A stretch of 64,000 bases of DNA from a bacterium (GTDB lineage Bacteria; Patescibacteriota; Patescibacteriia; Patescibacteriales; GWC2-42-12). Below are positions 5,916 through 60,457 of the stretch, piece after piece. The translations under genes were made by a program, and so were the position numbers. The stretch covers positions 1,687-65,686 of the forward strand of contig JAUSEG010000011.1 in the NCBI GenBank assembly GCA_030650415.1. The letters are read 5' to 3'. The number at the start of each line of letters is the position of its first letter. The stretch's first letter is position 1. The notes under the pieces were generated by a model. That model had not been told where the DNA came from, searched no databases, and worked only from the letters and a program-made list of their open reading frames with translations.

Positions 5916-5930
5916 AATTTATAAAATTAT

Positions 5931-6761
5931 TTAAATACCGAATTTATCATTTTTAATCCCCCACTTTAAAAAATACTTAAACCAGCTTTTAAGATGAACG
6001 CGCGCCACCCGGCTTTTTAAAATGGCTAATATCGGAGACTGCTCGCTTGATTCGCGGCGATGCTTATGCTTAACAACTATGTTATGGATATAATAGACTT
6101 GCCAGCCCGACCGCCAGGCGCGCCGACACCAATCACAATCTTCAAAATACATAAAATAACGATCATCGAAAAAGCCGATTTTATCGGTCAATTCTTTTCT
6201 AACGAGCATAAACGAACCCATCAGCCAATCTACCGGAACGGTTCTGTCATGTCCGAAATCGCGCATTAAATATCTGCCAACCTTGTTTTTAAAAAATTTA
6301 AATTTTACTTCAAACCCCAAGCGTCTGGCAAATTGATCTAGGAAGCGCGGATAGCGATAGCAGGATTCCTGAATCGTGCCGTCTAAGTTTAAAAGCTTGG
6401 GCGCGGCTATGCCGACCGCAGGATGGCTGGCCATAAATTCCAGCAACTTTTTAATGGCGCGGCCGCCGGCTAAAAATTCTATGTCCGGATTAAGAGGTAA
6501 ATAAAATTTCGCCGCGGCCCTCTTAAAACCAAGATTTAGGGCTTTGCCAAAACCAAGATTACCGCCCGGATTTATATAAACGACTTGCGGATAATTATTT
6601 TCCAACGCTTCTTTAATGCCGTCGGCGTTACCGGAGTTATCAACCACCTGGACAATAACCTTAATATTCTCATCGGCAATATCGGCAAAAAGCGACGCTA
6701 AACAGCGCAGTATGTCTTCTTTCATTTTCCAATTTACAATCACTATGTTTATATCAGGCAT
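5931..6761 (-). CDS. Family 2 glycosyltransferase.
   Basis: The N-terminus IVIVNWKMKEDILRCLASL and DxD-type motifs indicate a GT-A fold. Confidence 0.8.
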   Translation of the reverse strand: MPDINIVIVNWKMKEDILRCLASLFADIADENIKVIVQVVDNSGNADGIKEALENNYPQVVYINPGGNLGFGKALNLGFKRAAAKFYLPLNPDIEFLAGGRAIKKLLEFMASHPAVGIAAPKLLNLDGTIQESCYRYPRFLDQFARRLGFEVKFKFFKNKVGRYLMRDFGHDRTVPVDWLMGSFMLVRKELTDKIGFFDDRYFMYFEDCDWCRRAWRSGWQVYYIHNIVVKHKHRRESSEQSPILAILKSRVARVHLKSWFKYFLKWGIKNDKFGI

Positions 6762-11559: not shown

Positions 11560-11686
11560 ATTGTCATTGCGAACAACTACCACTCCACTGTCATTCCCGC
11601 GCAGGCGGGAATCCATTTCCACTAAAATTTCTGGATTCCCGCCTGCGCGGGAATGACAAACAAAATTATGCTCCTCGCAATGACAT
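11560..11686. repeat. Compound nested-palindrome repeat, family B (tgtcattcccgcgcaggcgggaatcc ... ggattcccgcctgcgcgggaatgaca), flanked by tgtcattgcga/ctcgcaatgaca.
   Basis: Perfect inverted arms are read directly. The same module is at 32281, 36195, 39297 and 42093. Confidence 0.85.
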
Positions 11687-17976: not shown

Positions 17977-18074
17977 TGTCATGCTGGAGGGAGCGCCAGC
18001 GACCGATAGCATCTCATTTTAAAGCGCCACACCACAAGATTCTATCGCTCCGCTTCGCTACGCTCCAGAATGAC
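17977..18074. repeat. Nested-palindrome repeat, family A copy.
   Basis: tgtcatgctggagggagcgccagcgaccgatagcatctca...agattctatcgctcc...gctccagaatgaca. Confidence 0.85.
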
Positions 18075-18076
18075 AA

Positions 18077-18539: not shown

Positions 18540-18632
18540 ATTATAACATTTTGATAACGAATCATGAATTATGAATCATGGGGCTTGCTAATATTATTCT
18601 CTGCATTTTCCATAATTCATGATTCATTATTC
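18540..18632. repeat. MITE-like inverted repeat, family C2 (gaatcatgaattatgaatcatgg ... ccataattcatgattcattattc).
   Basis: A second copy with the same internal 'ttttccataattcat' lies at 22795-22897. The same motif is inserted in the PfkB CDS. Confidence 0.75.
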
Positions 18633-20185
18633 ATAATTCCTTTTCTGGCTTTAGGCGTTACCCAAAAACCCATATACTTTCCTAACATCATTCTGGTCTG
18701 CGCTTCCAGCCCCGGGATAGCGCCAAAAATTATAATGCTGATAGGTAAAATCAGCCATTGCAGTACCATGATAATGCTTTTTATAAAACTGTATTGGCTG
18801 GGGCGCTTAGGCAGGAGTATGGTTGAAATAATCGCTGAAAAAATCATGCCGACCATGGCGACAATCATCAAAGTCCGAGAGACCGCCGGCAAGTTGCTTG
18901 ATAAAACCGTAACATTAAAATTATTCCCGCCCAAAATCATCGGCAGCCAGCCGACGATGCCGATTATTAAAGAATTTGTCGCCCAAGAATGAAAACCGTA
19001 AAATTGAACTAAAATTTTATTTATCATCTTGCCAATCGGCAGGGTTTTTCTTTCCTTGATGGTATTAAACATTAAATACGGCAAATTTTCCACTCCCCAG
19101 CCCCAGCGTCTCTGCTGTTTGTATAGATTTTTTATGGTTTGCCAGACGGTTAAATCCATGCAAACGTCCATGGAAACCGGAAAATATAGCGGTTCAACCC
19201 GATAGTCTCCCCGATAGTAGCAATAACAATGCCAGAAAATGCGCGAATCCTCGCTCACCATATTGGTGGACCAAAAATCAATATCCAGAAGCGCCCGCCA
19301 AGTCATTGAATGCGAAGAATAGGTCGCCAACTTTTCCTGCCTGATCTGCTGCATCATCTGCCAAAAAGTATTTGAAGAAGCGGCTACTCGCGAAAAAAAC
19401 GGCGCTTGCCAAATATTATTGTGATAGATGGGAATCGGCTGATAGCTTGCCCGATAAGGATTCTTAACCGTTAAAAACTTATGAGTCAAACAGAAAAAAT
19501 ATCCGGAGATTACCACCGTATCCATGTCAAAAACGCTGATTAAAATTTTATCGTAATTATAATTAAACTTATCAATAATTTGAATTTTCACCTGCTTCGC
19601 CGCCCAAGTTTGATTTGCCCCCTTGCCTTTTAGCTCGCCGGCAAGATTATCCGGATGAACGGTAACTAAAAAATGTTTGAATTTAAAACCAAATTCCCGC
19701 TCAATCACTCTGGCTCTGGCCTTGGCTTCGGCTCCGGCCCGCTCTTCAATGGCTAAAACCACAATCATTTTATCTGCCGGATAGCCGTCCCTTATTAATC
19801 CCTCAAAACTTGGCCTGATTACTTCCAGGCTTTCATCGTAGGTTGGAAAAATAACCAGCTGAACAACTTCCGACCAATTTAAATTACTCCCAACGTTCAT
19901 CGGCAGTTTTTCGCATTTCTCGCGCCAATCAATTTTAACATTCTTCTTAATACCTATATAAGCGGCAAAAAGATGGATGCCTAAATAAATAACCAGGAGC
20001 AGCCAATAAACATCAAAACCAATAATAAAATATGCCGCCCAAACCGGCTTAAGCCAGGAAAATAAAACTAAAATAATCAGCGTAGCCCAAGAAAAACCAC
20101 CTGGTAAAATTTCCAACAAACGGTAAAGCCTTCTGTCTTTTTTTATAACCAGGTCGGAGGCTTTGCTGATTTTCAGGTAATTCAT
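18617..20185 (-). CDS. Membrane-embedded processive GT2 beta-glycosyltransferase (cellulose/chitin-synthase-like).
   Basis: QQRRWGWG (the Q(Q/R)xRW motif), D,D,D motifs, and multiple TM helices on both sides of the catalytic domain. Confidence 0.7.
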   Translation of the reverse strand: MNYLKISKASDLVIKKDRRLYRLLEILPGGFSWATLIILVLFSWLKPVWAAYFIIGFDVYWLLLVIYLGIHLFAAYIGIKKNVKIDWREKCEKLPMNVGSNLNWSEVVQLVIFPTYDESLEVIRPSFEGLIRDGYPADKMIVVLAIEERAGAEAKARARVIEREFGFKFKHFLVTVHPDNLAGELKGKGANQTWAAKQVKIQIIDKFNYNYDKILISVFDMDTVVISGYFFCLTHKFLTVKNPYRASYQPIPIYHNNIWQAPFFSRVAASSNTFWQMMQQIRQEKLATYSSHSMTWRALLDIDFWSTNMVSEDSRIFWHCYCYYRGDYRVEPLYFPVSMDVCMDLTVWQTIKNLYKQQRRWGWGVENLPYLMFNTIKERKTLPIGKMINKILVQFYGFHSWATNSLIIGIVGWLPMILGGNNFNVTVLSSNLPAVSRTLMIVAMVGMIFSAIISTILLPKRPSQYSFIKSIIMVLQWLILPISIIIFGAIPGLEAQTRMMLGKYMGFWVTPKARKGIMNNES

Positions 20186-21001: not shown

Positions 21002-22792
21002 TTATGCCGCCCCGCCTGTCATGTCAGATCCCATGGCTTTATTTTGCCTGACCGAGGTTTTTTCGCTGATCCCGCGTTCTTCCGGCCTGCCTGCCCGATA
21101 GTTAGACTCTGCCTCCGAATATTTATTTTGATTTGAATAATCCGGCCTCGCTAGAGAAGCGGACTGGCCTATTTTAGACAATTCTTTTTCCTTAGCTTCC
21201 AGCCGTGATTTTACCTCTTGCTTCTTTTCGTTTTTCACGGCAATCAAACAATCCTTGCAAAAAATCGGCCTTATCCCATCCGGTATAAAGGATATTCGCG
21301 TTGTCTTAGCGCAACGGCTGCAGACGGCATCGTGCTTGCTGCTTTCCGATTGAATATCGGCTTTCGATCTGGATTTATCCAGACTTTCGTTATTTATGGC
21401 AGACGCCGGATTTCTCGGAATTTCTTTTTTTCTTTCAGCCGCCGGCCTGGCTGAAGTTTCTCTGTCCCTGGCTGGTCTTTTCTCCGACTCTCTTTCTCCG
21501 CCGTCGCTTTCGTCGTTATTCGTGTGCCAGCGGATAATTTTATCTTCAACGGACGTTCTCGGCTTAGAATATCTTTCTCGCGAAACTTTTATAACTTTTT
21601 CTTTATTGTTGGTTTTCTCCGCCTCGCTAAAAGGCGGCAAACCTCTAGCCGAAAAAGGATCGGAGGAAACTCCGTCAATCATTAATTTTATGTAAAATTC
21701 ATATTTAGTCAAATTTACTAAGTCTTCCTCTAAAAATACCGGGGTAAATTCTTTAACTAGCTCTTCGGCGTCAGTCGCGCCGACTCGAAAAACAATTAAC
21801 GTGCCGACGTTGCCGAAAACCGCCGGCTTAACGATTTCGCCGAGCTGCTCGATATATTGATGAGCCATAACTAGATTCAGCCGATATTTTCTGGCCTCGG
21901 ATAAGATATTGGCAAAACTGTCGGTCGTAAAATTTTGAAATTCATCAATATAAAGATAAAAATCTTGGCGATCTCTTTCCAATATATCAACCCGGCTCAT
22001 AACCGCCAGCTGCACCTTAGTAATCATCATGGCGCCTAAGAGCGCCGAATTATCTTCGCCGATTCTGCCCTTGCTTAAATTCATAATCAAAATTTTTCCG
22101 CTATCCATGACTTCCCTTAAATCGATGGTTGATTTAACCTGGCCGACGATATTTCTGATTAAAGAGCTTGATAAAAACTGCCCGACTTTATTTTGAATCG
22201 GCGAGACCGCTTCGGAAGCGAAATTATTGGCATAGCCGGCGAATTCGTTGACCCAAAAAGATTTAACCACCGGATCCTGAATTTTTTCAATAACTTTTTT
22301 TCTAAAATTCTTATCAGAGAGCATTCTGGTAATCGCCAGGAGCGTTGAGTCAGGATAATCCAAAATCGCCAAAATGGCATTCCTTAAAATATACTCGAGC
22401 CGAGGCCCCCAGGAATCGGCCCAGAGTTTTTTAAAAACTCCGATTAAGCCGGAAGCAACCAAGTGCCTTAAGTGCGGCTCAACCTTTTCGACCACGTTAA
22501 AGGCGATCGGGTAGTCCATATCGGCCGGATTGAAATAAATTACATCATTAACCCGGTTAGCCGGTATATAATCAATAACTTTTTCGGCTAAATCGCCATG
22601 CGGATCAACCACCATCACGCCTTTTCCAGATCTAATATCGTCAATAATCATATTTTCTAAAACCGTGGACTTACCCATGCCGGTTTTTCCAACCAAGTAC
22701 ATATGCCGGCGGCGATCGTCGATTTTAATGCCGAACTTTCTATGTTCGTTGCGGAAGTTGGTTTCGGCGAAAACTGTAATTTGATCTGACAT
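21002..22792 (-). CDS. VirD4/TraG/TrwB-like P-loop ATPase (type IV coupling-protein family) with a disordered, charged C-terminal tail and a CxxC...CxxC zinc ribbon.
   Basis: Walker A YLVGKTGMGKST; Walker B LYIDEFQNF; a TraD/TraG-like C-region AHQYIEQLGEIVKPAVFGNVGTLIVFRVGATDAEEL; a C-terminal CSRCAKTTRISFIPDGIRPIFCKDC. No TM segments in this ORF. Confidence 0.55.
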   Translation of the reverse strand: MSDQITVFAETNFRNEHRKFGIKIDDRRRHMYLVGKTGMGKSTVLENMIIDDIRSGKGVMVVDPHGDLAEKVIDYIPANRVNDVIYFNPADMDYPIAFNVVEKVEPHLRHLVASGLIGVFKKLWADSWGPRLEYILRNAILAILDYPDSTLLAITRMLSDKNFRKKVIEKIQDPVVKSFWVNEFAGYANNFASEAVSPIQNKVGQFLSSSLIRNIVGQVKSTIDLREVMDSGKILIMNLSKGRIGEDNSALLGAMMITKVQLAVMSRVDILERDRQDFYLYIDEFQNFTTDSFANILSEARKYRLNLVMAHQYIEQLGEIVKPAVFGNVGTLIVFRVGATDAEELVKEFTPVFLEEDLVNLTKYEFYIKLMIDGVSSDPFSARGLPPFSEAEKTNNKEKVIKVSRERYSKPRTSVEDKIIRWHTNNDESDGGERESEKRPARDRETSARPAAERKKEIPRNPASAINNESLDKSRSKADIQSESSKHDAVCSRCAKTTRISFIPDGIRPIFCKDCLIAVKNEKKQEVKSRLEAKEKELSKIGQSASLARPDYSNQNKYSEAESNYRAGRPEERGISEKTSVRQNKAMGSDMTGGAA

Positions 22793-22794
22793 AA

Positions 22795-22897
22795 TAAATG
22801 CAAATGAATTATGAATAATGAATTATGAATAATGGAATTTTACTGATTAATTTTTGCGTTTTCCATAATTCATAATTCATTATTCCTAATTCATCTA
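22795..22897. repeat. MITE-like inverted repeat, family C2 copy.
   Basis: gaattatgaataatgaattatgaataatgg...ttttccataattcataattcattattcctaattc. Confidence 0.75.
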
Positions 22898-26219: not shown

Positions 26220-26426
26220 ATGAGAAAATCATTCCTTTGGCTCTTCGGCTGCATCGCTGGGCTTATCCTCGCAATCGTGCTGTCGTTCAAAGCCAGCACC
26301 ATCAAAATCGTGCCGGTGCAAATTACCAACTCGCAAACCGAGACATCGGTAACTCTGGCGCCTGTCGCGCCGGAGTCCAATCGGGTGACGGTTAACTTCA
26401 GCGGTGTCCAACCGGTCATCAAGTAA
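26220..26426 (+). CDS. Small (68 aa) signal-peptide/TM protein in the GC-rich island.
   Basis: MRKSFLWLFGCIAGLILAIVLS hydrophobic N-terminus. GC-rich codons and an A/C-rich SD-less leader. Confidence 0.4.
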   Translation: MRKSFLWLFGCIAGLILAIVLSFKASTIKIVPVQITNSQTETSVTLAPVAPESNRVTVNFSGVQPVIK

Positions 26427-26463
26427 TGTCGGTCAACAAAAACAAAAAAACAGCAGAAACAAA

Positions 26464-27636
26464 ATGAAAAAAACAATGTCGGTAATAGCACTGGCGCTTC
26501 TCGCAGCCAGTGTAATGTTCGCTCAAGACCTTCCACCCGTCTCCGGTGGCGACAATTCAGGCGGAGGCGGATCGGGCGGTGGCGGTGGAAGCTCTGTGCC
26601 GCCAACCTTCACGGGGCCTGACAAGGTGCCGTTGGCTTCGCCAAAGGTGCTACAGGCCTACGCCCTGACCCTGGTCGGAACGATAGGAGTGCAAGTGTAC
26701 GGAAATTCGGTCTCCGGCGACAGTTATCGCTGGGTGGACTACCCGTACGAGGATGCCGACCCCGATCGCATGGCCAGCATAGCCAGTTCGATCGAGCTGA
26801 AATTCAGCGCAACCACGGATGATCAACTGACTTCATGGGTGTCGTATAACAGTCGAATGTTCACCCTGACAGACCCGGATGAAAATGAAGTCACAACCGC
26901 ATTTGGCTTGTTCAACGGAGGCAAAAACTTCAAGCTTGAATACTTCAAAGATGCGTGGCGGGTGCCTACCAACGCCTACGCTGTTGAACTTGAGGTTGGC
27001 CAAGTTCCTTGGGTAGTCCCTGGGATGAGAAATGCCTACATCACGACTCGAGATGAAAAAGGCAACTACACCGGATACTACGATTTCCGGCAACAGCAGG
27101 GCGACTACTGGCTGGATCGCGGGGTTATATTCCTTACCGAGCAACTGACCTCTCGCCGCGGAGACCTAACCACGATTTTGGAAAACGGTTCCAAGGTCGT
27201 CTATGACATCACAAGCGGTTGGCGAAAATACTCGCCGACGATCAAGGGTAGCGGCTTCAAGCCGACGATCAAAGGGATTCGGACCGTGCCTGACAATACG
27301 ATTGATATTGTTTATCGGGAAACAGACGAAATCGTCAGAGTCGCCTACACTGGGGATTATCACGGCTCAAACACGTTTCAAAATGTGTTTGTGGAATTCC
27401 CTGGAGAACTGAAGCGGTATCCGGCCAAAGTTTTTGTCATCGACACGAGACTCTTGGCGTTAAACCCTGACGCCGAATGGCTGGAATTCAATCCGTATGT
27501 TGAGCCGGTATGGTTCAGGATGAAAGTCGGCCAAGCCGTGCTCATCCGCTTCGAGTACCAAATCGATCCGGAGCCGCTGGACAATGGTGGCGGCGGTAAG
27601 GGCGCCAAAGTCGCGCCAGTCAAGCTTGAGGAGTAA
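26464..27636 (+). CDS. Secreted hypothetical protein (signal peptide, Gly/Ser linker, ~330 aa domain of unknown function). The start was set at MKKTMSV.
   Basis: MKKTMSVIALALLAASVMFAQD signal peptide, a GGGGSGGGGGSS linker, GC ~55% against ~37% for the flanks, and a terminator at 27669-27706. Confidence 0.55.
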   Translation: MKKTMSVIALALLAASVMFAQDLPPVSGGDNSGGGGSGGGGGSSVPPTFTGPDKVPLASPKVLQAYALTLVGTIGVQVYGNSVSGDSYRWVDYPYEDADPDRMASIASSIELKFSATTDDQLTSWVSYNSRMFTLTDPDENEVTTAFGLFNGGKNFKLEYFKDAWRVPTNAYAVELEVGQVPWVVPGMRNAYITTRDEKGNYTGYYDFRQQQGDYWLDRGVIFLTEQLTSRRGDLTTILENGSKVVYDITSGWRKYSPTIKGSGFKPTIKGIRTVPDNTIDIVYRETDEIVRVAYTGDYHGSNTFQNVFVEFPGELKRYPAKVFVIDTRLLALNPDAEWLEFNPYVEPVWFRMKVGQAVLIRFEYQIDPEPLDNGGGGKGAKVAPVKLEE

Positions 27637-27668: not shown

Positions 27669-27706
27669 AGCGCCAGCTTCACCTCGAAGCCGGCGCTCTT
27701 TTTTTA
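27669..27706 (+). terminator. Rho-independent terminator of the island transcript.
   Basis: agcgccagcttc-acctc-gaagccggcgct followed by ctttttttt. Confidence 0.6.
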
Positions 27707-27722: not shown

Positions 27723-27861
27723 TGTCATTGCGAGAAGTAAAATTCATTCGTCATTCTGGAGGGAGCGTCAGCGACCGATAGAATCTCATAATATAACATG
27801 AGATGCTATCGCTCCACTTCGTTCCGCTCCAGCATGACAAAAAAAGTCGCTCGCAATGACA
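27723..27861. repeat. Compound nested-palindrome repeat (outer tgtcattgcgag/ctcgcaatgaca, inner family A).
   Basis: Three concentric inverted-repeat pairs are read directly. The element is nearly identical to 31113-31259. Confidence 0.85.
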
Positions 27862-28825: not shown

Positions 28826-29016
28826 GCTGTCATTGCGAGCCGCCCTTGTAATCAAGGCGGCGAAAAAATTGTCATTGCGGGCTTGACCCGCAATCCAGGT
28901 TTCAATTTCACAAATGACTTATATAATTATTAACCTTATAAACAAAACTATTTAGTTTTAAATCTGGATTCCGGCCTGCCTACCGGACAGGCAGGCTCGG
29001 AGGCCGGAATGACAAT
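28826..29016. repeat. Two adjacent palindromic modules (tgtcattgcgagccgcc.../ttgtcattgcgggcttgacccgcaatcc and ggattccggcc...ggccggaatgaca).
   Basis: Read directly. They share arms with the elements at 40672-40905 and 45165-45350. Confidence 0.75.
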
Positions 29017-29043: not shown

Positions 29044-29925
29044 CTACGGCAATAAAATTGAAATAACCGATAAAGAGGCTAAATCAATCTGCGGCTCGAT
29101 CGTGGCGCTTTGCCAAACCTCATTATTTTCTTTTATAACTTTCGTCACCCGGCCGATAACTAAGCCGCGCGGTATGTTCTGCTCCAGCCCGGAAGTCGCC
29201 ACTAAGTCGCCGGCCTTAATATTTTCGGTTTGGGGTATAAATTCCATTTTAATGGTTAGCCCCAACTCGCCGGCGGCTATGCCGGAGGTTTTTTCCTCGC
29301 CTAAGATAGCGGCCGCTAATTTGCAATTTTTATTGGTTACTAAATATATTTCAGAAAGATTATCTTTAACATTAACGATTTTACCGATAATAACGCCTTG
29401 GCTCGTCTCGCCCGAGCTTACGAAGCTGACTACCGCTAGACCGGCGAACAGGCCGTCTCTTAAGCCCTTATCAATTAATACCGACCGGCTGTCTGCCGGC
29501 TCGCCTTCGAGTTCGCCTCGAGAAATTATATTAGCCATTAAGTAACGCTTGCCGCTTTTTTCCAAAAAGTTTAATTGTTTCCTTAAGGCCAAGTTTTCTT
29601 CTTTTAAAAATTTCAACTCAACATTCTCGGCCGTTAAGCGATTTATCATAACGCCCGCTTCCTTTAACTTAGCCGCTAAATCAACCTTGGCGGTTTGATC
29701 AGAATAGGTCCGATTTAAGCCCGAACTCAAAGAATAAAATATTTTAAATACGGGATTGAGTCTCTTGGCTAAAAATGATTCCACCGGATTTAACAACTTA
29801 GCATAATGCAAAACCAACAGCAGCACAAGAGCTACTACAATATATACATATTTTTTCAAATTTATTCTCAACATACTATCTAATTTAATTGCCACATACC
29901 TAATTTTCAATTTACTAATTTTCAA
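29044..29925 (-). CDS. mreC: Rod shape-determining protein MreC.
   Basis: N-terminal TM, coiled-coil and C-terminal beta domain (GDLVATSGLEQNIPRGLVIGRV). It is immediately downstream of mreB. Confidence 0.8.
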   Translation of the reverse strand: MKISKLKIRYVAIKLDSMLRINLKKYVYIVVALVLLLVLHYAKLLNPVESFLAKRLNPVFKIFYSLSSGLNRTYSDQTAKVDLAAKLKEAGVMINRLTAENVELKFLKEENLALRKQLNFLEKSGKRYLMANIISRGELEGEPADSRSVLIDKGLRDGLFAGLAVVSFVSSGETSQGVIIGKIVNVKDNLSEIYLVTNKNCKLAAAILGEEKTSGIAAGELGLTIKMEFIPQTENIKAGDLVATSGLEQNIPRGLVIGRVTKVIKENNEVWQSATIEPQIDLASLSVISILLP

Positions 29926-30056
29926 TTTTCAAACAATGCTCTAATTTTTAATGATCAATTATCTCTACTTCGCCAAGCCTACGGAGGATAAGCAATTTTA
30001 AAATTTAATCATTGAAAATTCATTGAAAATTGATAATTGAAAATTAAAAATTATTT
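29880..30056. repeat. AT-rich MITE-like element, family C copy 2.
   Basis: aattttcaatttactaattttcaattttcaaacaatg...cattgaaaattcattgaaaattgataattgaaaatt. Confidence 0.7.
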
Positions 30057-31100: not shown

Positions 31101-31112
31101 TATATTTATTAT

Positions 31113-31259
31113 GTCATTGCGGGCTATTATTCTTTCTGTCATTCTGGAGGGAGCGCCAGCGACCGATAGAATCTCGCTGTAAACACTCTAACCATGAGAT
31201 GCTATCGCTTCACTTCGTTTCGCTCCAGCATGACAAGAAATTAGTCGCTCGCAATGACA
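31113..31259. repeat. Compound nested-palindrome repeat (family A inside tgtcattgcggg/ctcgcaatgaca).
   Basis: Read directly. Confidence 0.85.
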
Positions 31260-31368
31260 ATAAAAGCATTCTTTATTCTTTCAGTTTACTCTAAAATCAC
31301 CCAATCTGTCAAAAAAACGGCTGCTCCTTAAAAGCAACCGTTTTTCTGATATTTAAGCAGATTTTAAA

Positions 31369-32277: not shown

Positions 32278-32280
32278 AAT

Positions 32281-32500
32281 TTTCTCTTTGTCATTCCCGC
32301 GCAGGCGGGAATCCAGGGGTTAGCAGTAAAAATATACTGCTTTCTCTAAACCCTACACAATATAAAAATTTTAAATTAGCGCACGCTCAGTAAAAATATT
32401 CCTACTTCTCCCTCCTGGATTCCCGACAGCCTTCGGCTTCGGGAATGACAGACTAAAAAAAGACCGCTTCGCTTCATTCCTCGCAATGACAAATTATCTT
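32281..32500. repeat. Composite family B element (tgtcattcccgcgcaggcgggaatccaggggttagcagtaaaaat...ctccctcctggattcccg...gggaatgaca...ctcgcaatgaca).
   Basis: Closely related to 42093-42320. Confidence 0.8.
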
Positions 32501-36194: not shown

Positions 36195-36238
36195 ATCCCT
36201 CCTGGATTCCCGCCTTCGCGGGAATGACAATAAAAGTA
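36195..36238. repeat. Single family B palindromic module (ctcctggattcccgccttcgcgggaatgaca).
   Basis: Read directly. Confidence 0.7.
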
Positions 36239-36252
36239 GTTATTTTCTTACT

Positions 36253-39200
36253 TTATGCCCCATGGCACTTCTTATATTTTTTGCCAGACCCGCACGGGCA
36301 GGGATCATTCCGCCCAATTTTCTGGCCTTCGGCATCTTTGGCTTTTTCATGAACTAAATCTACCGGTTGATTTTTTTTATTTTCACTACTCTTAAAAGCG
36401 GAAAATGATTCTGTGCTCTTATCCATAGTCTTGGCCGGGGCGATGTAATTCTGCGGCCGCGTCTTCAATGTTGGCATGGCGAAATTACCGAAGTCCGCCA
36501 CTTTAAAAATGGAATAAGCCACTTGCTTTTGAATTAAATTATTTAATTCATTATATAAAATATAAGCTTCTTTTTTGTATTCTATGAGCGGATCTCTCTG
36601 GCCATAGCCGCGGAGCCCGATGCCGGCGCGCATATGATCCATGGCTTCCAAGTGCTCCATCCACAGCATGTCAAATGACCTTATAAGAACCGCTTTTTCA
36701 ACTTGGCGCCAATCGATTCCGGCCTCTCCGGCCAGTTTAATAATTTTTTCATAGTTGGTTTTTACCAAAGCCATGAGGTGGTCGCAAATTTTCGTCCTAA
36801 CTCTTACTTTTTCCAGCTTATCGCCGTCGCCGGCCAATCCCGTAAGCTCATCTTTTAATTTCGCTTCCACCGGCAAAATGGTTGACATAACCTGATAAAT
36901 TTCTTTAATATTCCAATCCGCGCTTGCATCGGCGGCCGTATGAAAAATTACCGCCTGCTCGATTTCGTTTTCAATCATTTCTAAAATTATTTCTGTCATC
37001 CTGGAGGGAGCGGAGCGACCGATAGGATCTCCCTGTTTTGCCTCTGAACTATGGGATTCTATCGCCTTCGGCTCCAGAATGACATTACCACTTTCCGCCA
37101 ACTCCAATATCTCTCGCCTCTTCCGATAGGTTGTCTCGCGATGCTTATTTATTACATCATCATATTCAACCAAGTGTTTTCTAGTATCAAAATTATTGCC
37201 TTCAACTTTTTTCTGCGCCGATTCGATGGAACGAGAAACCATGCCATTCTCTATTGGCAGGTCTTCCGGCACTCTTAAGGTGGTCATTAAGTTCTTCATC
37301 CGGTCGCCGCCAAAAATTCTCATCAAATCATCTTCCATGGAAACATAGAATTGGCTTGATCCCGGATCGCCCTGGCGGCCGGCGCGGCCTCGAAGCTGAT
37401 TATCAATGCGCCTGGCCTCGTGCCTTTCCGTGCCAATAATATGCAAACCGCCAGAGGCCAGCACTTTTTTATATTCTTCTTGCCAGATTTTATATTCCGG
37501 GTTTTCCTCTTTTCCGTCTTCCATCAATTTGCTTGGCGGTACTCCGCCGAGCATAATATCCACACCTCTTCCGGCCATATTGGTGGCGATAGTCACGGCG
37601 CCCAAACGCCCGGCCTGAGAAATAATTTTGGCTTCCTTTTCATGGTGTTTGGCATTTAAAACCTGCGGTATAATCCCTTCTCGTTCGAGCATCTCGCCCA
37701 AGACTTCATTTCTTTCAATGGAGATGGTGCCGACTAAGATCGGCTGGCCGGTAGCGTGCCGGCGCTTCACTTCTTCAATCACGGCTTTAAACTTTCCATT
37801 TTCGGTCCGATAAATTAAATCATTAAGATCTTTTCTAACCATCGTCCGATTAGTCGGTATCACCACGGTTTCCAGTTTATAAATTTTGGAAAATTCCTCG
37901 GCTTCGGTTATGGCCGTGCCGGTCATGCCCGAAAGTTTCTTATACATTCTGAAATAATTTTGAAAAGTCACGGTGGCTAAGGTCTGTGATTCGCGTTGAA
38001 CTTTAACTTTTTCCTTAGCTTCAATCGCCTGGTGCAAACCCTCGCTATAGCGCCGGCCATGCATTAAGCGGCCGGTAAATTCATCAACAATAATTACTTC
38101 GTTATCTTTCACCACGTAGTCCCGATCGCGCTTAAATAAAACTCGCGCTTTTAGAGCTTGCTCAATATGGTGCACTTCGGAAATTCCGCCCGAGGTATAA
38201 ATATTATCCACGCCCATTAATTTTTCCATTTTAGCGATACCGGCTTCGGATAAAGTGGCGGCGCGCATTTTTTCATCAACATTATAATCGCCCTGCCCTG
38301 AGTCATCCGAAGGGTCATTTTCGGTTAAACGTTCAACCAAGTCGGAAAATTTAAAATATTTATCCGTCGATTCTTCGGCTGGAGAACTGATTATAAGCGG
38401 CGTTCTGGCTTCATCAATTAAAATTGAATCGACTTCATCGACGATAGCGTAATATAAATCCCTTTGCGCCATTGAATTTAAATCCGGCACCATGTTATCC
38501 CTTAAATAATCAAAGCCGAATTCATTATTCGTGCCATAAAGAATATCGCAAGCATAGGCCTCTTTACGTGGCACTTCAACTAATTTGCCTTCGTTTTGGT
38601 CATTGAAAATTTGATCATTGGGATTTGTTTGAAAATTGTCTGGCTTCGCCAGATCTGGCGTAGCCAGAGAAATTGGAAATTGAAAATTTTTTCCCGAATT
38701 ATAAATATAGGCTTTTTCATGTGTTATACATCCCACGCTCAATCCAAGAAAACTGTAAATCTTCCCCATCCATTCGGCGTCGCGCTTGGCCAGGTAATCG
38801 TTAACCGTAATTACATGCACGCCCTTTTTAGGCAGAGCGTTTAAATAAGCGGGCAAAGTAGCCACTAAAGTTTTACCTTCGCCGGTTCTCATTTCCGAAA
38901 TTTGCCCGCGATGCAGCGCCAGGCCTCCGAGCAACTGCGCGTCATAATGCCTCTGGCCTAGGGTTCGCTTGGCCGCTTCTCTAACCACGGCGAAAGCTTC
39001 CGGCAGAATTTCTTCCAGCCTTTTTTCTATGTCATCCTGGAGCGAAGCGTCAGCGGAGCGATAGGATCTCATTTTTTCATTACCCGCGCTGAGCAAAACC
39101 GAAGCGTCAGTCTCCACCTCCAATCTTTTTCTAAACTCGGCCGTCATATTCCGCAACTCATCATCGCTCATCACTTCAAACTTTTTTTCCAAAGCATTAA

Positions 39201-39276: not shown

Positions 39277-39296
39277 AAATTATTTATTGTCATTGC

Positions 39297-39415
39297 GGGT
39301 AATTAAATAAAGCAATCTTCCCCATTCTGTCATTCCCGCGCAGGCGGGAATCTAGAAAACGTATTTATACCTCGCACCCCTAGATTCCCGCTTTCGCGGG
39401 AATGACAAAATAAAC
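39297..39415. repeat. Family B compound element upstream of secA.
   Basis: ttgtcattgcgggtaatt...tgtcattcccgcgcaggcgggaatctag...tagattcccgctttcgcgggaatgaca. Confidence 0.8.
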
Positions 39416-40671: not shown

Positions 40672-40905
40672 TGTCATTGCGAGCCGCCCTCTTTTTTGTC
40701 ATTCCGGCCTTTAAGCCGAAGGCTCGCCCCGTTAAATCCCTACGGGACGCAAAGCGTATTTAACGGGGCGAGCCGGAATCCAGGTTTTGGCGCTAAGAAC
40801 AAATTTCTGGATTGTCGTGGCTTCGCCAGATCTCGCGTAGCGATGACGAGGTCAAGCCCGCAATGACAAACAAAAATTAAACTCCTCGCAATGACGTTAG
40901 GTTAT
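40672..40905. repeat. Composite palindromic repeat region (tgtcattgcgagccgcc, tgtcattccggcc...ggccggaatcc, ggcttcgccagatctcgcgtagcgatgac, cgcaatgaca x2).
   Basis: Read directly. The modules are shared with 28826-29016, 42230-42320 and 45165-45350. Confidence 0.8.
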
Positions 40906-42083: not shown

Positions 42084-42092
42084 AAATTTTTG

Positions 42093-42320
42093 TTTGTCAT
42101 TCCCGCGCAGGCGGGAATCCAGGGGTGAGCAGTAAAAATGCATTCCACCACCCTAAACTCTATATGATATTAATATTTTATAAAAGCGTGCGAACATTAA
42201 TAATGGTCCTGCTACTCCCTCCTGGATTCTCATGGCTTCGCCAGATCTCGCGTAGCGATGACCGATAGCCTTCGGCTTCGGGAATGACAAGAAGAATTAG
42301 GGGTTCTCGCAATGACAGTT
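42093..42320. repeat. Composite family B element, near-duplicate of 32281-32500.
   Basis: tgtcattcccgcgcaggcgggaatccaggggtgagcagtaaaaatgc...ctccctcctggattc...ggcttcgccagatctcgcgtagcgatgac...gggaatgaca...ctcgcaatgaca. Confidence 0.8.
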
Positions 42321-42324
42321 CGGC

Positions 42325-42896: not shown

Positions 42897-44000
42897 TTAT
42901 TTTTTCTTTGGTATCTGCTTGACCGCCAGATAAATGATACTCGGATTTTTCGGATCAATCAAGAGCCTAAAGCCGGTTCGGCTCGAAGGCAGCTTATTCG
43001 AACTCCAATTTTTTCCGCCGTCTAAAGAGCGATAAAAAGTTGTATCAGTTACATAATAAATTTCGTTAGTATCAAAAGGATTAATGGCAATGGCATTTAT
43101 TTTAATCCGCGCTTTCTCAATAATCAGCTCGATTTTAGACCAAGTTTCGCCGTCGTCGGCTGACTTGATAAAACCGAAATTAGTGGCTAAAAAAACGGTT
43201 GGCTTTTCCGCTTTAACCATAGCCAAATCGCGAAAAGCTCCGGTGCCATCAAGAACTTTTAGCTTATCGCTTAAGTTTACCCAGCTCGAGCCGCCGTCGG
43301 TAGTGCGAAAAATTCCTTTGGCAAAAGCGCCGACAAATATAATCTTGGCGTTAACCGGGCTAATAACAATTCTATCGACTGGACTTTCAAACCTGTTTAA
43401 AGTTTGCCAACTCGCTCCACGATCCAGACTCTTGATAATTTCGCCGCGCGAAGTGCCGATAAAAACATTATTGTTATTGTTGCTATCGATAACTAAAGCG
43501 GTGATGATTACTGCCGGATCATTATCAAAATAGGTAATAGCCCAGGCGCGGCTGCAGTCCACTGATTTATAGACCTTATTGGCCGCCGTCGCGTAAATAA
43601 CGCACTTATTAGCCGGATCAACCGCGACATTGGTTACCGTCACTTTGCCCAAACCGGTGGCTATTTGCCAGCCCTCTCCGCCGTCGTAGCTGTAAAACAA
43701 GCCGTTGCCAATGCTCCCGGCGTAAATTGCTTTGCTATCCTCCGGATCCAGAGTTGAAGAAATTATGTCAACCGTGTTAAAACTTCTTTTCGAGCCGACT
43801 GTTTGAATTAAAACTTTCTGATTCCAAAGCGTTCCTTTATTAAGGGATTTATAAATTCCGCCATCGGTTAAGCTTGCGTCAGCGCCGGAACCGGTATTGA
43901 AACCGATGGTACAACCGGATAAAAAAAGCGCCGTTAATGGCAGCAACCATACTAATTTTAAAAATTTGGTTTTGGACATAAATTTAAATTTAATTTTCAA
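42897..44000 (-). CDS. Lipoprotein with a BNR/Asp-box beta-propeller (Ycf48/sortilin-like).
   Basis: Lipobox LFLSGC, and at least five S-x-D-x-G-x-(T/S)-W repeats (SYDGGEGW, SLDRGASW, TTDGGSSW, SADDGETW, SLDGGKNW). Confidence 0.6.
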   Translation of the reverse strand: MKIKFKFMSKTKFLKLVWLLPLTALFLSGCTIGFNTGSGADASLTDGGIYKSLNKGTLWNQKVLIQTVGSKRSFNTVDIISSTLDPEDSKAIYAGSIGNGLFYSYDGGEGWQIATGLGKVTVTNVAVDPANKCVIYATAANKVYKSVDCSRAWAITYFDNDPAVIITALVIDSNNNNNVFIGTSRGEIIKSLDRGASWQTLNRFESPVDRIVISPVNAKIIFVGAFAKGIFRTTDGGSSWVNLSDKLKVLDGTGAFRDLAMVKAEKPTVFLATNFGFIKSADDGETWSKIELIIEKARIKINAIAINPFDTNEIYYVTDTTFYRSLDGGKNWSSNKLPSSRTGFRLLIDPKNPSIIYLAVKQIPKKK

Positions 44001-44093
44001 TTTCTAATTTTCAATTTCTAAACAATGTCCTAATTTTCAATTTGTTAATTAAAGAATTAATTCATTAAAAATTGTTTGAAAATTGAGAATTGC
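43975..44093. repeat. AT-rich MITE-like element, family C copy 3.
   Basis: ctaattttcaatttctaaacaatgtcctaattttcaatt...aattaattcattaaaaattgtttgaaaattgagaattg. Confidence 0.7.
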
Positions 44094-45113
44094 CTATATG
44101 CTCGCCGCCACATTTTCCAGCGTTAACTTGGGATTTACATTATTCGCCAAATATTCTTTAGCTTGCTTTAGGGCGTCAATCAAACTTAGCAAAGATTTCA
44201 TGCTCAGTTTATTTTTTACCGCTGACAATTCTTCGTTAAAAGCTTCGTGCTGAATTAAATCGGCTAAATTTAATTCCATGAGCATTAAATCTCTGATTAG
44301 GTTTTGCCAAACATCAATAATTTTTCCGACTGACTTAACCGCTTCTTGCCCGCGCGCATTTTTCCCTAAAATATTTTCAATCGCTTTAAAGCGCTCGTTA
44401 ATATCCAGGTTCAATAATCCAACAAAGCCTTGAACATTGGCTTTGTAATTTTCATAATATTCTTTCTCCTCTAAAAACTTTAAAGCTATCGCCGGCCGGC
44501 CGGCCGACAAACGGGAAAAATTTTTAGCCTGGCTCCTCTGAGCGCCATGATTTTTAATCAAATCATCATAAATCATATCGCTTTTTACCGGCTGAAATCT
44601 TAAAATTTGGCTGCGCGAAACTATGGTCTTAGGCAGGGTTTCAAAATCCGTGACAGTTAAAATTATTACTACTTTAGCTTTGGGTTCTTCTAAAGTTTTT
44701 AGAAGCGCGTTAACCGCCCCCTCGCTTAGGGCTTCCGCGCCCTCGATAATGCCGATTTTATAAGAATTTAAAAACGAACTTAACCCCAGGCTTCTGATAA
44801 AATCTCTAACCTGCTCGATAGAAATATTTTTTTTATCAGCCTCTTTTTTTATTAAATAAATATCGCCATGAATTCCCTTAAGAGCCTCTCGACAGGCCGG
44901 ACACTTGCCGCAAGGCAGAGTTAATTGATCCTTGGCTTCGCAGACCAGGCTTTGCGCAAAAAAATTAGCGGCCGTGGCCTTGCCTAAACCGGCCGGACCG
45001 GTAAATATATAACTGCCGGAAATGTTTTTATTAATTAAGCTTTTAGCTAAAAATTCAAAAATATGGCTATTGCCAATTAATGGCCAGCTTAATTTGACTT
45101 TTGTTTCTTCCAT
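44094..45113 (-). CDS. holB: DNA polymerase III delta-prime subunit (clamp-loader AAA+).
   Basis: FTGPAGLGKATAANFFAQSLVC...CGKCPACREALKG (Walker A plus Zn module). The start was moved to MEETKVKL (the upstream 54 codons are repeat-encoded). Confidence 0.7.
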   Translation of the reverse strand: MEETKVKLSWPLIGNSHIFEFLAKSLINKNISGSYIFTGPAGLGKATAANFFAQSLVCEAKDQLTLPCGKCPACREALKGIHGDIYLIKKEADKKNISIEQVRDFIRSLGLSSFLNSYKIGIIEGAEALSEGAVNALLKTLEEPKAKVVIILTVTDFETLPKTIVSRSQILRFQPVKSDMIYDDLIKNHGAQRSQAKNFSRLSAGRPAIALKFLEEKEYYENYKANVQGFVGLLNLDINERFKAIENILGKNARGQEAVKSVGKIIDVWQNLIRDLMLMELNLADLIQHEAFNEELSAVKNKLSMKSLLSLIDALKQAKEYLANNVNPKLTLENVAASI

Positions 45114-45164: not shown

Positions 45165-45350
45165 ATTGTCATTGCGAGGAGCCCTGTAATCAGGACGACG
45201 CAACGGTCTTACTGTCCTGTCATTGCGGGCTCCGACCTCGTCATCGCTACGCGAGATCTGGCGAAGCCACGACAATCCAGAAACTTACGCTAAATATATA
45301 AATCTGGATTCCGGCTCGCCTTCGGCTTAAAGGCCGGAATGACAATACTT
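45165..45350. repeat. Composite palindromic repeat region.
   Basis: tgtcattgcgaggagccctgtaatcagg...cctgtcattgcgggctcc...catcgctacgcgagatctggcgaagcc...ggattccggc...gccggaatgaca. Confidence 0.8.
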
Positions 45351-59016: not shown

Positions 59017-59020
59017 ATAT

Positions 59021-60457
59021 TTATTTTAATTCATTAATTATAATTCTTAAAATATTATCAGTACAGTCTTGCTTGGTTATTTTTTTATTCCTATTAAAAT
59101 AATTTTCCACAAACCCGTGAATACTGGCTATTTCTAAGGCCTTAAAGTAATTTATAATCGACTGATTATCGGATTGATAACCACTTTCGATTTTTCTTAT
59201 CGCCGACCGGCAAGTTTCCACATTATTAACTTTAAAAACGCCCGGGCAATCACTGTACCACGCGTAACCAAAAACTAGGGCCGGCTTGCGCCGCACAGCC
59301 GCCTCCCAGCCGGCTGTGCCTGTAACTGTCGCCACTGCTTGCGATTGCTTAATTAGAAAAAAAGTGTCTGTTTTAACAGGAATCAACCTAACCTTATCTA
59401 TTTGAGAAATCTGGCGATAATATCCGGGGTAACGACTATCAGTAAAGTTCAAACCGAAACCTAGCCAAGTCGTTGGATGTTCTTTAACGTAGATTACCCA
59501 ATCTTTTGGCAATGAACTCGCTAAAATTCTAATCATTAATATTTGATTAGTGAAGACCCCGCCCATCGGACTGGTTGAACATTCAGGCTGATAATGCAAA
59601 GGCACATAAATAAATTTTTTAGTAAAATCTGGCCGAGGTTCATAAAAACGGTGATATTCTTTTTGCGGGTTATCAATCAATAATTTTTTTAAATATAATG
59701 GAACTTTTTTAAATATAGTAAAATCCCTTAAGCTTTTTAAGGTAATTCTTATTTTTAAAATAATTTTATTTTTCAAGCTGCCCTTCTTTAAAAAATCTTG
59801 AATATAGCTTGGGGTAGCATCATTGCCTTCGGTTGTATTGAATTTATAATATAGGCGCAAGTCTTCACTCAAATCTTCCAAAGAAAAATTTTTGTCCTTA
59901 TTTCTGGTTGACTCCGACAATAACTTCCTAGAACCCTCACGAATATTATCATACCAAATCATTCTACCGGCTATCCCGATATCGTGAAATATCAATACTC
60001 TTATATTTTGCTGACGCGCCATTTCATAAATTATATAGTTATAGCCAGGATGCGGAGGGGCGGATATAATCATCGCCTCTGGCTTATATTGATTAAATAC
60101 TCCATTCCAATAGCTTAACCAGCCATAGTAATAATTTTTTCGTTCATCTACGCATATTCCTTTAAAATGCTTATTCATCATGGTTAAAATTATTGATTCA
60201 GCGCTTGAAAATTTATTGATTAATTCTTCGCTGGGTGGATCAAATTTGACTTGTTTCAACTCGTTTGGCGGAACGCCTATCCAAGCATCCCAATGATCAT
60301 GTAAAATTATTCCGGAAAATTTTCCTTCTTCTTTTTTAGCTTTTACAAATTTTTTATTGGCTACCCAATAGACTAACTCGTGTCCGTTTTTCTTTAAGCT
60401 GGAAACTAAATTTAAAAATTCCGGACTATCATCTAACCAAATCAATAATATACGCAT
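59021..60457 (-). CDS. Hypothetical protein, possibly a capsule/polysaccharide glycosyl- or phospho-transferase (KpsS/CDP-glycerol transferase-like).
   Basis: The only evidence is its position in the sugar cluster. No motif was securely recognised. Confidence 0.25.
   Translation of the reverse strand: MRILLIWLDDSPEFLNLVSSLKKNGHELVYWVANKKFVKAKKEEGKFSGIILHDHWDAWIGVPPNELKQVKFDPPSEELINKFSSAESIILTMMNKHFKGICVDERKNYYYGWLSYWNGVFNQYKPEAMIISAPPHPGYNYIIYEMARQQNIRVLIFHDIGIAGRMIWYDNIREGSRKLLSESTRNKDKNFSLEDLSEDLRLYYKFNTTEGNDATPSYIQDFLKKGSLKNKIILKIRITLKSLRDFTIFKKVPLYLKKLLIDNPQKEYHRFYEPRPDFTKKFIYVPLHYQPECSTSPMGGVFTNQILMIRILASSLPKDWVIYVKEHPTTWLGFGLNFTDSRYPGYYRQISQIDKVRLIPVKTDTFFLIKQSQAVATVTGTAGWEAAVRRKPALVFGYAWYSDCPGVFKVNNVETCRSAIRKIESGYQSDNQSIINYFKALEIASIHGFVENYFNRNKKITKQDCTDNILRIIINELK

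Follow-up and report, generated by a model that had tools for sequence, protein, structure and literature searches.

What are the palindromic repeats that occupy the spacers between the genes of a Falkowbacteria-like member of the Patescibacteria, and by what means did they spread there? The question is raised by a 64-kb stretch of contig JAUSEG010000011.1 (denoted here as the window, i.e. the whole of the DNA analyzed), which belongs to a metagenome-assembled genome (MAG) and carries housekeeping genes, nearly all on the minus strand. Its RseP is 100% identical to NCBI MDO8667819.1, and among named relatives Candidatus Falkowbacteria and Parcubacteria come closest. The repeats are exemplified by the element at 27723-27861, in which the outer arms of one repeat family (O) enclose a complete copy of another (A). 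These elements probably belong to the superfamily of repetitive extragenic palindromes (REPs) tagged CGTC or TGTC, comprising the NTS hairpins and Ssn-related motifs (SRMs) that are cleaved elsewhere by GIY-YIG nucleases of the Ssn family. The repeats are of a class already described from other phyla; its occurrence in Patescibacteria is not reported in the literature searched, in which no paper linking this group with REPs or with transposable elements of the miniature inverted-repeat kind (MITEs) was found.

Abundance and structure of the repeats

The gene map of the window was curated with corrected start codons before its spacers were counted. For comparison, 87 syntenic loci from relatives were used (these and other related loci are given below as L-numbers); the window plus related loci amounted to 1.45 Mb. 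Arm pairs of the type GTCAT…ATGAC were recorded when separated by 30-320 nt and complementary at no fewer than 10 of 12 arm bases, and block-shuffled sequences served as controls. The window yields 18 such inverted pairs, 17 of them genuine, against about 0.3 expected per 64 kb, and the block-shuffled 1.45 Mb holds 3-12 arm pairs in total. It is confirmed that the repeats are real and far above chance.

A preliminary description of the window had listed copies at 2144, 11560, 17977, 27723, 28826, 28957, 31113, 32281, 36195, 39297, 40672, 42093, and 45165. Modules are present at all 13 positions, and every repeat family named there was recovered by scans for direct and inverted repeats. Copies of family A can be aligned across about 90-105 nt, the mean column identity being 76%. 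The strong structure ascribed to them is evident from the folding of the element at 27723-27861 (DNA z = -6.8, RNA z = -8.9; none of 200 shuffles equally stable), and nesting up to three deep is seen at 40672-40896. The statement that almost every larger spacer is filled proved too sweeping. Of the 28 spacers measuring 45 nt or more, 12 contain the YGTC-hairpin superfamily (11 of 23 when only spacers of 100 nt or more are counted), five further spacers hold unrelated AT-rich palindromes (three with TTGAAAATTG, two with ATGAATTATGAAT), and 11 hold none. The superfamily adds up to about 1.76 kb, one quarter of the intergenic DNA in the window. No copy occurs beyond 45.4 kb, where the genes are tightly packed.

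The hairpin unit

All modules start with (T/C)GTCAT and end with ATGAC(A/G). As shown by their comparison, the basic unit consists of YGTC, a stem beginning with AT, a loop, and a return stem ending in AT that is followed by C. Units were also shown to pair head-outwards as inverted dimers, which accounts for the TGTCAT…ATGACA ends of every module. The family B unit reads TGTC-ATTCCCGC-GCAG-GCGGGAAT-CCAG, with an 8-bp stem and a 4-nt loop, and mostly forms head-out inverted dimers, as at 11589-11658 and 39328-39407. In the variant units, the loops are longer and the stems are swapped or of another sequence (ATTGCGGG, ATTCCGGCC, ATTCCCGA). The design of family B recurs in families A, O, and C in longer or shorter versions. 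An A arm has the form TGTC-ATNCT-(about 22 nt)-AGN'AT-CTC and an O arm, complete in relatives, the form TGTC-ATTGC-(18-20 nt)-GCAAT-CTC; both have 5-bp stems, and the loops of the two arm types span 18-22 nt overall. Family A is present in four intergenic copies and one copy within secA. Module C is a minimal dimer of 32 nt (TCATGGCTTCGCCAGATCTCGCGTAGCGATGA) with four copies. B, A, O, C, and the variant units all retain the GTC head and the C that directly follows the palindrome.

The conserved fold can be read from the variable stem position of the A arms. Of 101 distinct A-type arms from the window and from metagenomes, 98 have N and N' as a Watson-Crick pair (T-A 45, C-G 35, G-C 18), so that the pair ATNCT/AGN'AT covaries with three pair types. 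Of the 48 distinct miniature A elements that are complete, 47 nevertheless have two unlike arms, one arm being nearly always of the T-A type, and the long hairpin that would join arm to arm is mismatched at two positions in these 47. The intra-arm pairing and the mismatched long hairpins therefore support a small hairpin in each arm on its own strand, a feature of single-stranded DNA (ssDNA), as the conserved fold, and not a long RNA hairpin. O arms have no variable stem position and are neutral in this respect. The unlike A arms could reflect distinct left and right ends or the avoidance of perfect palindromes.

Kinship with NTS hairpins and CGTC-tagged REPs

SsnA is a 94-aa single-domain GIY-YIG protein that binds the 28-nt NTS of Neisseria and cuts a few bases upstream of it, acting on ssDNA only. 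The bases critical for its action are GTC before the palindrome (cleavage) and C after the palindrome (binding). The arrangement NTS-ssnA-NTS was likened to an insertion sequence (IS), and the wider group of SRMs was defined in the same study (Chenal, 2025; PMC11893778). The NTS consensus CGTCATTCCCGCGMAVGCGGGAATCYRG, allowing at most one mismatch (the authors' tolerance), and the SRM pattern HGTCWYN(0-2)YYVSBRHN(0-5)WNVSBRGN(0-2)RNCYNB, both taken from that paper, were searched in the window and in 100 dinucleotide shuffles. NTS matches occur at six places (11631, 32289, 36202, 39328, 39380, and 42095) and not once in the shuffles. Seven family B units match the SRM pattern, compared with 0.05 on average in the shuffles; it is matched neither by families A, O, and C nor by the ATTGCGGG/ATTCCGGCC units of the window. 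Family B shares 27 of the 28 bases of the NTS, and the GTC head and following C recur in all modules. The window differs from the published system in its host, Patescibacteria being absent from the main text of PMC11893778, in modules (A, O, C) that lie outside the SRM pattern, and in the two-tier, nested construction of its elements. Comparative evidence of insertion, in-frame copies in secA, and the lack of ssn in the window itself are further differences.

The same units fit the CGTC-tagged REPs, whose tag is often TGTC and which possess AT-first stems of 8-9 bp, loops of 4-5 nt, and a CCA tail. Units of these REPs pair head-to-head as dimers, genes contain some of the copies, and a dedicated transposase was not found for them (Di Nocera, 2013; PMC3733652). 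Family B agrees with the CGTC-1 type in its tag, 8-bp AT stem, 4-nt loop, CCA tail, and head-to-head dimers, and that survey likewise describes some intragenic copies and dimers nested in outer palindromes. It differs in covering five phyla without members of the candidate phyla radiation and in naming no enzyme, and the A and O arms fall outside its four families.

A further likeness concerns the dRS3 elements and mosaic NIMEs of Neisseria, with which the window shares the core ATTCCC-N8-GGGAAT and the mosaics of repeat units filling intergenic regions. In contrast to Neisseria, no RS units and no integrase of the filamentous-phage or IS110 type are seen here, the G+C content is 40%, and the phylum is another one.

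In BLASTN searches of plasmid records, the element at 11560 matches more than 35 places in N. gonorrhoeae as well as sequences of Photobacterium, Cupriavidus, Azospirillum, Legionella, and sphingomonads. The PLSDB entries NZ_CP119140.1 and NZ_CP119142.1, which supplied NTS repeats and ssnA for the analysis, are 2.17-Mb N. gonorrhoeae 'plasmids' and evidently chromosomes. The NTS core GTCATTCCCGCG-N3-GCGGGAATC is also present in more than 120 viral or proviral contigs of IMG/VR (loci L212-L291), some of which hold as many as 13 copies (L228). A scan of viral contigs for A-type arms whose bubble was set at 15 nt found none, which is uninformative since the bubble length varies.

Insertion into short spacers, into one another, and into secA

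Orthologous spacers of relatives make the insertions visible. The RRF-rseP spacer measures 9-10 nt in L011, L012, and L034 but 241 nt in the window, the rseP-hpf spacer 10-18 nt in L012, L013, L034, and L017 against 242 nt, the mreC-murB spacer 2-4 nt in L003, L010, and L012 against 227 nt, and the secD-secF spacer 2-13 nt in relatives against 584 nt. Overall, 'empty' orthologous spacers in relatives are 2-25 nt long, the window elements at these places comprise 96-270 nt, and at most junctions the window spacer is the largest among all relatives. Where a relative's spacer is occupied, its occupant differs: L008, L003, L005, L006, and L011 have plain O elements, L001, L006, and L013 have AT-rich palindromes, and L003 and L010 have other hairpins. 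The plain O element in the rseP-hpf spacer is common to L008 and L003 and thus inherited; some of the occupants are not. The comparison with relatives lacking the insertions shows that elements inserted without target duplication into ancestral spacers of about 2-25 nt. As these spacers were already short, the elements abut stop and start codons, and about 8-12 AT-rich bases are left between an element and the next start codon. Spacers preceding start codons are AT-rich and without a Shine-Dalgarno motif.

Target-site duplications, for which a search had been suggested, are missing: no direct repeat was detected at 14 inspected junctions, and the ends are always of the form T/GTCAT…ATGAC/A, the slash marking the junction. 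This bears on the likeness to the Correia elements of Neisseria that had been drawn, i.e. on the explanation that the repeats are MITEs of a DDE-type IS. Terminal inverted repeats, small size, and intergenic location would suit such MITEs, but besides the missing duplication (neither TA nor any other), there is no long terminal inverted repeat (that of Correia elements being 26 bp), no DDE transposase is encoded in any examined locus, and the arms are structured hairpin units whose sequence fits dRS3/NTS. The nearest Neisseria analogue is accordingly dRS3/NTS, and an origin of the Correia type is most improbable.

Elements were also shown to have inserted into one another and in-frame into secA. 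The composites at 32278-32500 and 42084-42324 are 81% identical and differ by an exact 32-nt insertion of module C into a unit stem; they are a paralogous pair of an empty and a filled site for this module. SecA comprises 1007 aa in the window against 883-934 aa in L012, L013, and L003, and contains three in-frame repeat blocks of 84, 93, and 90 nt, so that the location of the repeats is not confined to intergenic DNA. The first block (39031-39114, minus strand; residues 55-82) has a perfect A-type arm as its 3' half (GAGATCCTATCG…CTCCAGGATGAC) and is absent from L003, L006, L012, and L013. The 93-nt block at 38596-38688 (residues 197-227) is an AT-rich palindrome of the TTGAAAATTG type with a central module C palindrome (38641-38666). 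The third, at 36994-37083 on the plus strand (residues 732-761), is a complete family A element of 90 nt, i.e. 30 codons in-frame; the same site holds an A element in L001 and an O element (read as VIARS…EIASLP.VARND) in L008, L005, and L012, and is empty in L006 and L013. In this behavior the secA segments of 84, 93, and 90 nt resemble Rickettsia palindromic elements (RPEs), which are in-frame palindromes in protein genes of a reduced genome. RPE ends carry CGTC as well (PMC3733652). Most copies in the window, unlike RPEs, are intergenic.

Could the repeats instead be RNA structures selected by the host, serving as terminators, mRNA stabilizers, or processing sites, and not be mobile DNA at all? 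The very stable RNA fold noted above (z = -8.9) and the placement in leaders and between co-directional cistrons are what such structures would be expected to display, and REPs stabilize mRNA in Escherichia coli. Yet presence, absence, and replacement vary among close relatives, the hairpin conserved is that of the single arm while 47 of 48 elements have mismatches in the long one, secA contains in-frame copies, and there is no Rfam match (neither Rfam at gathering thresholds nor a tRNA scan of the window returned anything). The suggested role in transcript termination found no support: a GC-rich hairpin with a T-run is formed only by the unit at 28894-28874, and the window has 32 terminator-like sites compared with 24.3 ± 4.7 in shuffled sequence. 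The explanation by host-selected RNA is unlikely, although a secondary effect on RNA is possible. Transcribed copies would fold into RNA hairpins of great stability within leaders and between cistrons, their effect on transcripts being conjecture.

Nor do the repeats resemble intrinsic terminators as such, in view of the lone T-run unit and the lack of enrichment over shuffles.

Nuclease genes within related elements

A metagenome scan with the A inner-arm motif (a 16-base pattern) returned at least 120 stretches. Only the 54 with a full A left arm among the 120 listed were used, many of the others being likely chance matches; these 54 usually carry the matching right arm, and several are set in the kind of O shell known from the window. 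In L159, L210, L211, L090, L095, and L209 (Candidatus Levybacteria), the loop of an A-type element contains a gene of about 95 codons. In L039 (Patescibacteria) such a gene is part of a different GTCAT-type element directly after rseP, in L074 (Falkowbacteria) it is placed between two inverted TGTCAC REP units, and in L119 between two elements. The arm-enclosed proteins (86-120 aa) match only PF01541 (GIY-YIG). They align end-to-end with gonococcal SsnA (L208 398-682, 94 aa, flanked by NTS) at 35-50% identity (65-92 bits, E 1e-19 to 1e-30), and Y6, Y17, R27, H31, and E64 are invariant throughout. More than 6,000 homologues are found at E <= 1e-10, among them proteins of Levybacteria, Microgenomates, and Daviesbacteria; sequence searches of NCBIfam and PDB with the arm-enclosed proteins yielded neither a specific family nor a structure. 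Repeat-flanked genes of about 95 codons for homologous single-domain GIY-YIG proteins (Y6/Y17/E64) are found in these related loci as they are in Neisseria.

Because A-type arms enclose ssn elsewhere, the window copies look like a gene-less miniature form of such elements. The REP-, MITE-, or RPE-like nature with a mobile past that the preliminary description had proposed agrees with these nuclease-bearing full-length forms as well as with the empty spacers, the differing occupants, and the 32-nt nested insertion.

Classical REPs and their doublets (REPINs) are mobilized by RAYT, a Y1 HUH transposase of the IS200/IS605 type, and the elements at issue share their general design, i.e. inverted dimers of hairpin units, no target duplication, intergenic location, and high copy number; a small nuclease gene within its own repeats, as in L074, is moreover reminiscent of a 'REPtron'. 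The tag, however, is TGTC/CGTC in place of GTAG, the gene enclosed by the arms encodes a GIY-YIG protein and not an HUH Y1 enzyme, and in a survey RAYT genes were never found with flanking CGTC units (PMC3733652). No Y1 transposase gene was found in the window, nor between the arms of related loci totaling about 2 Mb, and in the 87 syntenic loci inverted arms enclose no transposase, only housekeeping genes. Mobilization by a RAYT is very unlikely.

Several observations were made on the ssn-bearing and NTS-bearing loci themselves. In L209 (5391-7566; GCA_030650175.1), the ssn-bearing A element has on one side an open reading frame (ORF) for the N-terminal domain alone of a glycosyltransferase and on the other side an ORF for the C-terminal domain, as if a gene had been split. 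An NTS unit is translated in-frame (SFPRRRES…) within a glycosyltransferase in L091 (~1909-2465) and L123 (~5921-6437). At 1052-1695 of L119, A-type arms enclose the gene of a 168-aa P-loop protein (GSINSGKTT) in place of ssn, from which it follows that such arms are able to carry other small cargo.

Possible modes of spread

Under the reading preferred here, which places the elements among the CGTC/TGTC-tagged REPs and NTS/SRM hairpins, an Ssn protein encoded outside the window, or formerly present, would nick the single-stranded hairpins and thereby drive or trigger their spread. By analogy with Neisseria, the hairpins may also restrict recombination of incoming ssDNA. A bolder proposal is that the hairpin-bounded ssn genes are autonomous ssDNA mobile elements driven by the GIY-YIG nuclease, with the A, O, B, and C modules as their non-autonomous miniatures, which would have been recently active in Patescibacteria and have invaded spacers of 2-25 nt, 5' leaders, one another, and secA at its permissive loops. 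This proposal is tentative and has somewhat less in its favor than against it. If it is true, the unlike arms of 47 of 48 A elements would distinguish a left from a right end in function, as is the case in IS200/IS605.

A number of points weigh against an Ssn-based interpretation. The assignment of A, O, and C to the superfamily would depend on their shared design and, for A, also on the flanking ssn genes. By tblastn, no ssn homologue is encoded in the 64-kb window, and ssn genes surrounded by O-type or C-type arms were not seen. The genes of L119 and of N. gonorrhoeae are located between units with inward-facing heads and not within a head-out pair. Ssn was demonstrated to cut ssDNA, not to transpose (PMC11893778), and the CGTC REPs come without a dedicated transposase (Di Nocera, 2013; PMC3733652). 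Spread by recombination or by another enzyme is possible.

The elements might also be relics, formerly spread by Ssn or another enzyme and now immobile and decaying, with deletion and recombination causing the differences between sites. A window without ssn, many degenerate units or lone arms (O shells, the half-element at 39031), and the inherited O element of the rseP-hpf spacer in L008 and L003 would agree with such a state. Near-perfect copies, such as the 27/27 dimer at 11589-11658 and the clean 32-nt insertion, do not, and window spacers that are the largest at most junctions suggest lineage-specific gain. Decay is the less probable course, at perhaps one chance in a few.

Intergenic elements of the window

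The element at 27723-27861 lies between convergent genes, 10 nt past the murB stop codon. Its O shell has the outer arms TGTCATTGCGAG and CTCGCAATGACA and encloses a complete family A copy (27749-27839) in the order TGTCATTGCGAG, 15 nt, CGTCATTCTGGAGGGAGCGTCAGCGACCGATAGAATCTCAT…ATGAGATGCTATCGCTCC…CGCTCCAGCATGAC, 11 nt, CTCGCAATGACA. Family A miniatures on the plus strand are located at 2144-2230, with a left arm of the G-C type and a right arm of the T-A type, ending 8 nt upstream of a pfkB-family start codon, and at 17977-18075, between a dTDP-sugar isomerase-like gene and a HIT gene. A second family A copy within an O shell (31112-31259, A part 31137-31235) occupies the 5' leader of mreB and is absent from L003, L010, L012, and L013. 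Since it is placed between a conserved promoter (TTGACA-18-TAAACT, 31312-31283) and the ATG, it is transcribed as part of the leader. The region 31283-31350 upstream of mreB consists of a terminator hairpin followed by this promoter and is kept in L001, L003, L010, L012, and L013.

Family B is represented by a perfect head-out NTS-type dimer (11589-11615 and 11632-11658, units matching 27/27) inside an O shell at 11562-11685, by a lone NTS-type unit, TGTCATTCCCGCGAAGGCGGGAATCCAG, downstream of secA (36202-36229, minus strand), and by an O-like head (39288-39299) with a head-out NTS-type dimer (39328-39355 and 39380-39407) that together span 39288-39407 and lie 12 nt upstream of the secA ATG. 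The remaining elements are composites. In the mreC-murB spacer (28828-29014), an O arm is combined with the REP-like unit TGTC-ATTGCGGG-CTTGA-CCCGCAAT-CCAGG (28870-28899) and an inverted unit with the stem ATTCCGGCCT (28968-29014). In the composite of about 200 nt at 32289-32491, an AT-rich spacer separates an NTS unit (32289-32316) from an inverted variant unit (32419-32449), and one O arm is present as well; its variant unit is the 'empty' counterpart for module C, and its paralog in the RRF-rseP spacer (42095-42317) holds module C (42230-42261) inside the stem of the variant unit. Three levels are reached in the rseP-hpf spacer (40672-40896), where O arms surround an inverted REP-like pair with module C (~40814-40849) within one of its units. 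Between the divergent holB and sugar-transferase genes (45167-45344), an O arm, a REP-like unit with a reverse module C (45240-45273), and an inverted unit are found.

The view that the repeats lie behind wrong starts of longest ORFs holds for rmlD, rseP, HIT, murB, mreB, and holB. The peptide RLRGND, said to recur at the N-termini of rmlD, rseP, and holB, is indeed present in the over-long rmlD and rseP ORFs (as DSRLRGND, which in rmlD is a spurious N-terminus due to the element at 11562-11685), but holB has only …ARND and …PRND. A literature search on repeat-derived peptides (RLRGND, AFAGMT, and others) returned no relevant paper.

Other palindromes and neighboring features

An unrelated second family of AT-rich palindromes (AATTTTCAATTTTCAAACAATT…AATTGTTTGAAAATTGAAAATT) occurs at 431-571, 29895-30055, and 43984-44108 and in secA (38596-38688), as well as in spacers of L001, L006, L010, and L013. 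In the 481-nt holB-BNR spacer of L010, AT-rich arms enclose the gene of a four-helix-bundle protein of 23S rRNA intervening sequences (PF05635, E 1e-14), and this family may likewise exist in a gene-bearing full-length form. A third palindrome family consists of ATGAATTATGAATAATG repeats at 18553-18645, 22804-22894, 1679-1739, and 59019-59050. The copy at 1679-1739, situated inside the pfkB-family ORF and reading ELRIMNHELRIME…, may represent a further in-frame insertion.

The gene at 26404-27636, one of the few on the plus strand, encodes a secreted-looking protein of 410 aa that is rich in glycine in its N-terminal part and has no match in Pfam. The G+C content of this region is 0.47 compared with about 0.40, and the gene is followed by a strong hairpin and T-run terminator (27669-27697). 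At 21002-22792, a TraG/VirD4-like coupling protein (TrwB_AAD_bind, T4SS-DNA_transf) with a zinc finger is encoded next to a 487-aa protein without a Pfam match; this homologue may be relevant to DNA transfer or uptake.

Implications

For the annotation of MAGs, such repeats matter since they create false N-terminal extensions (…DSRLRGND…, …VIARS…, …ARND…), spurious small ORFs, and inflated proteins such as SecA. The CGTC REPs were without an enzyme in 2013, the cleavage of their ssDNA form by Ssn was shown in 2025, and their mode of spread is still at the stage of hypothesis. The details described here, i.e. two-tier arms, unlike arms, a nested insertion, copies in secA, and empty sites, bear on this spread. 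The window and its relatives constitute a compact natural experiment in which ancestral spacers of a few bases make every insertion visible, and in which the same system offers empty and filled orthologous sites, a clean nested insertion, and miniature and ssn-bearing forms with the same arms, while in-frame copies are tolerated in the essential gene secA. Should the hairpin-bounded ssn genes be autonomous elements, they would represent a class of transposon so far undemonstrated.

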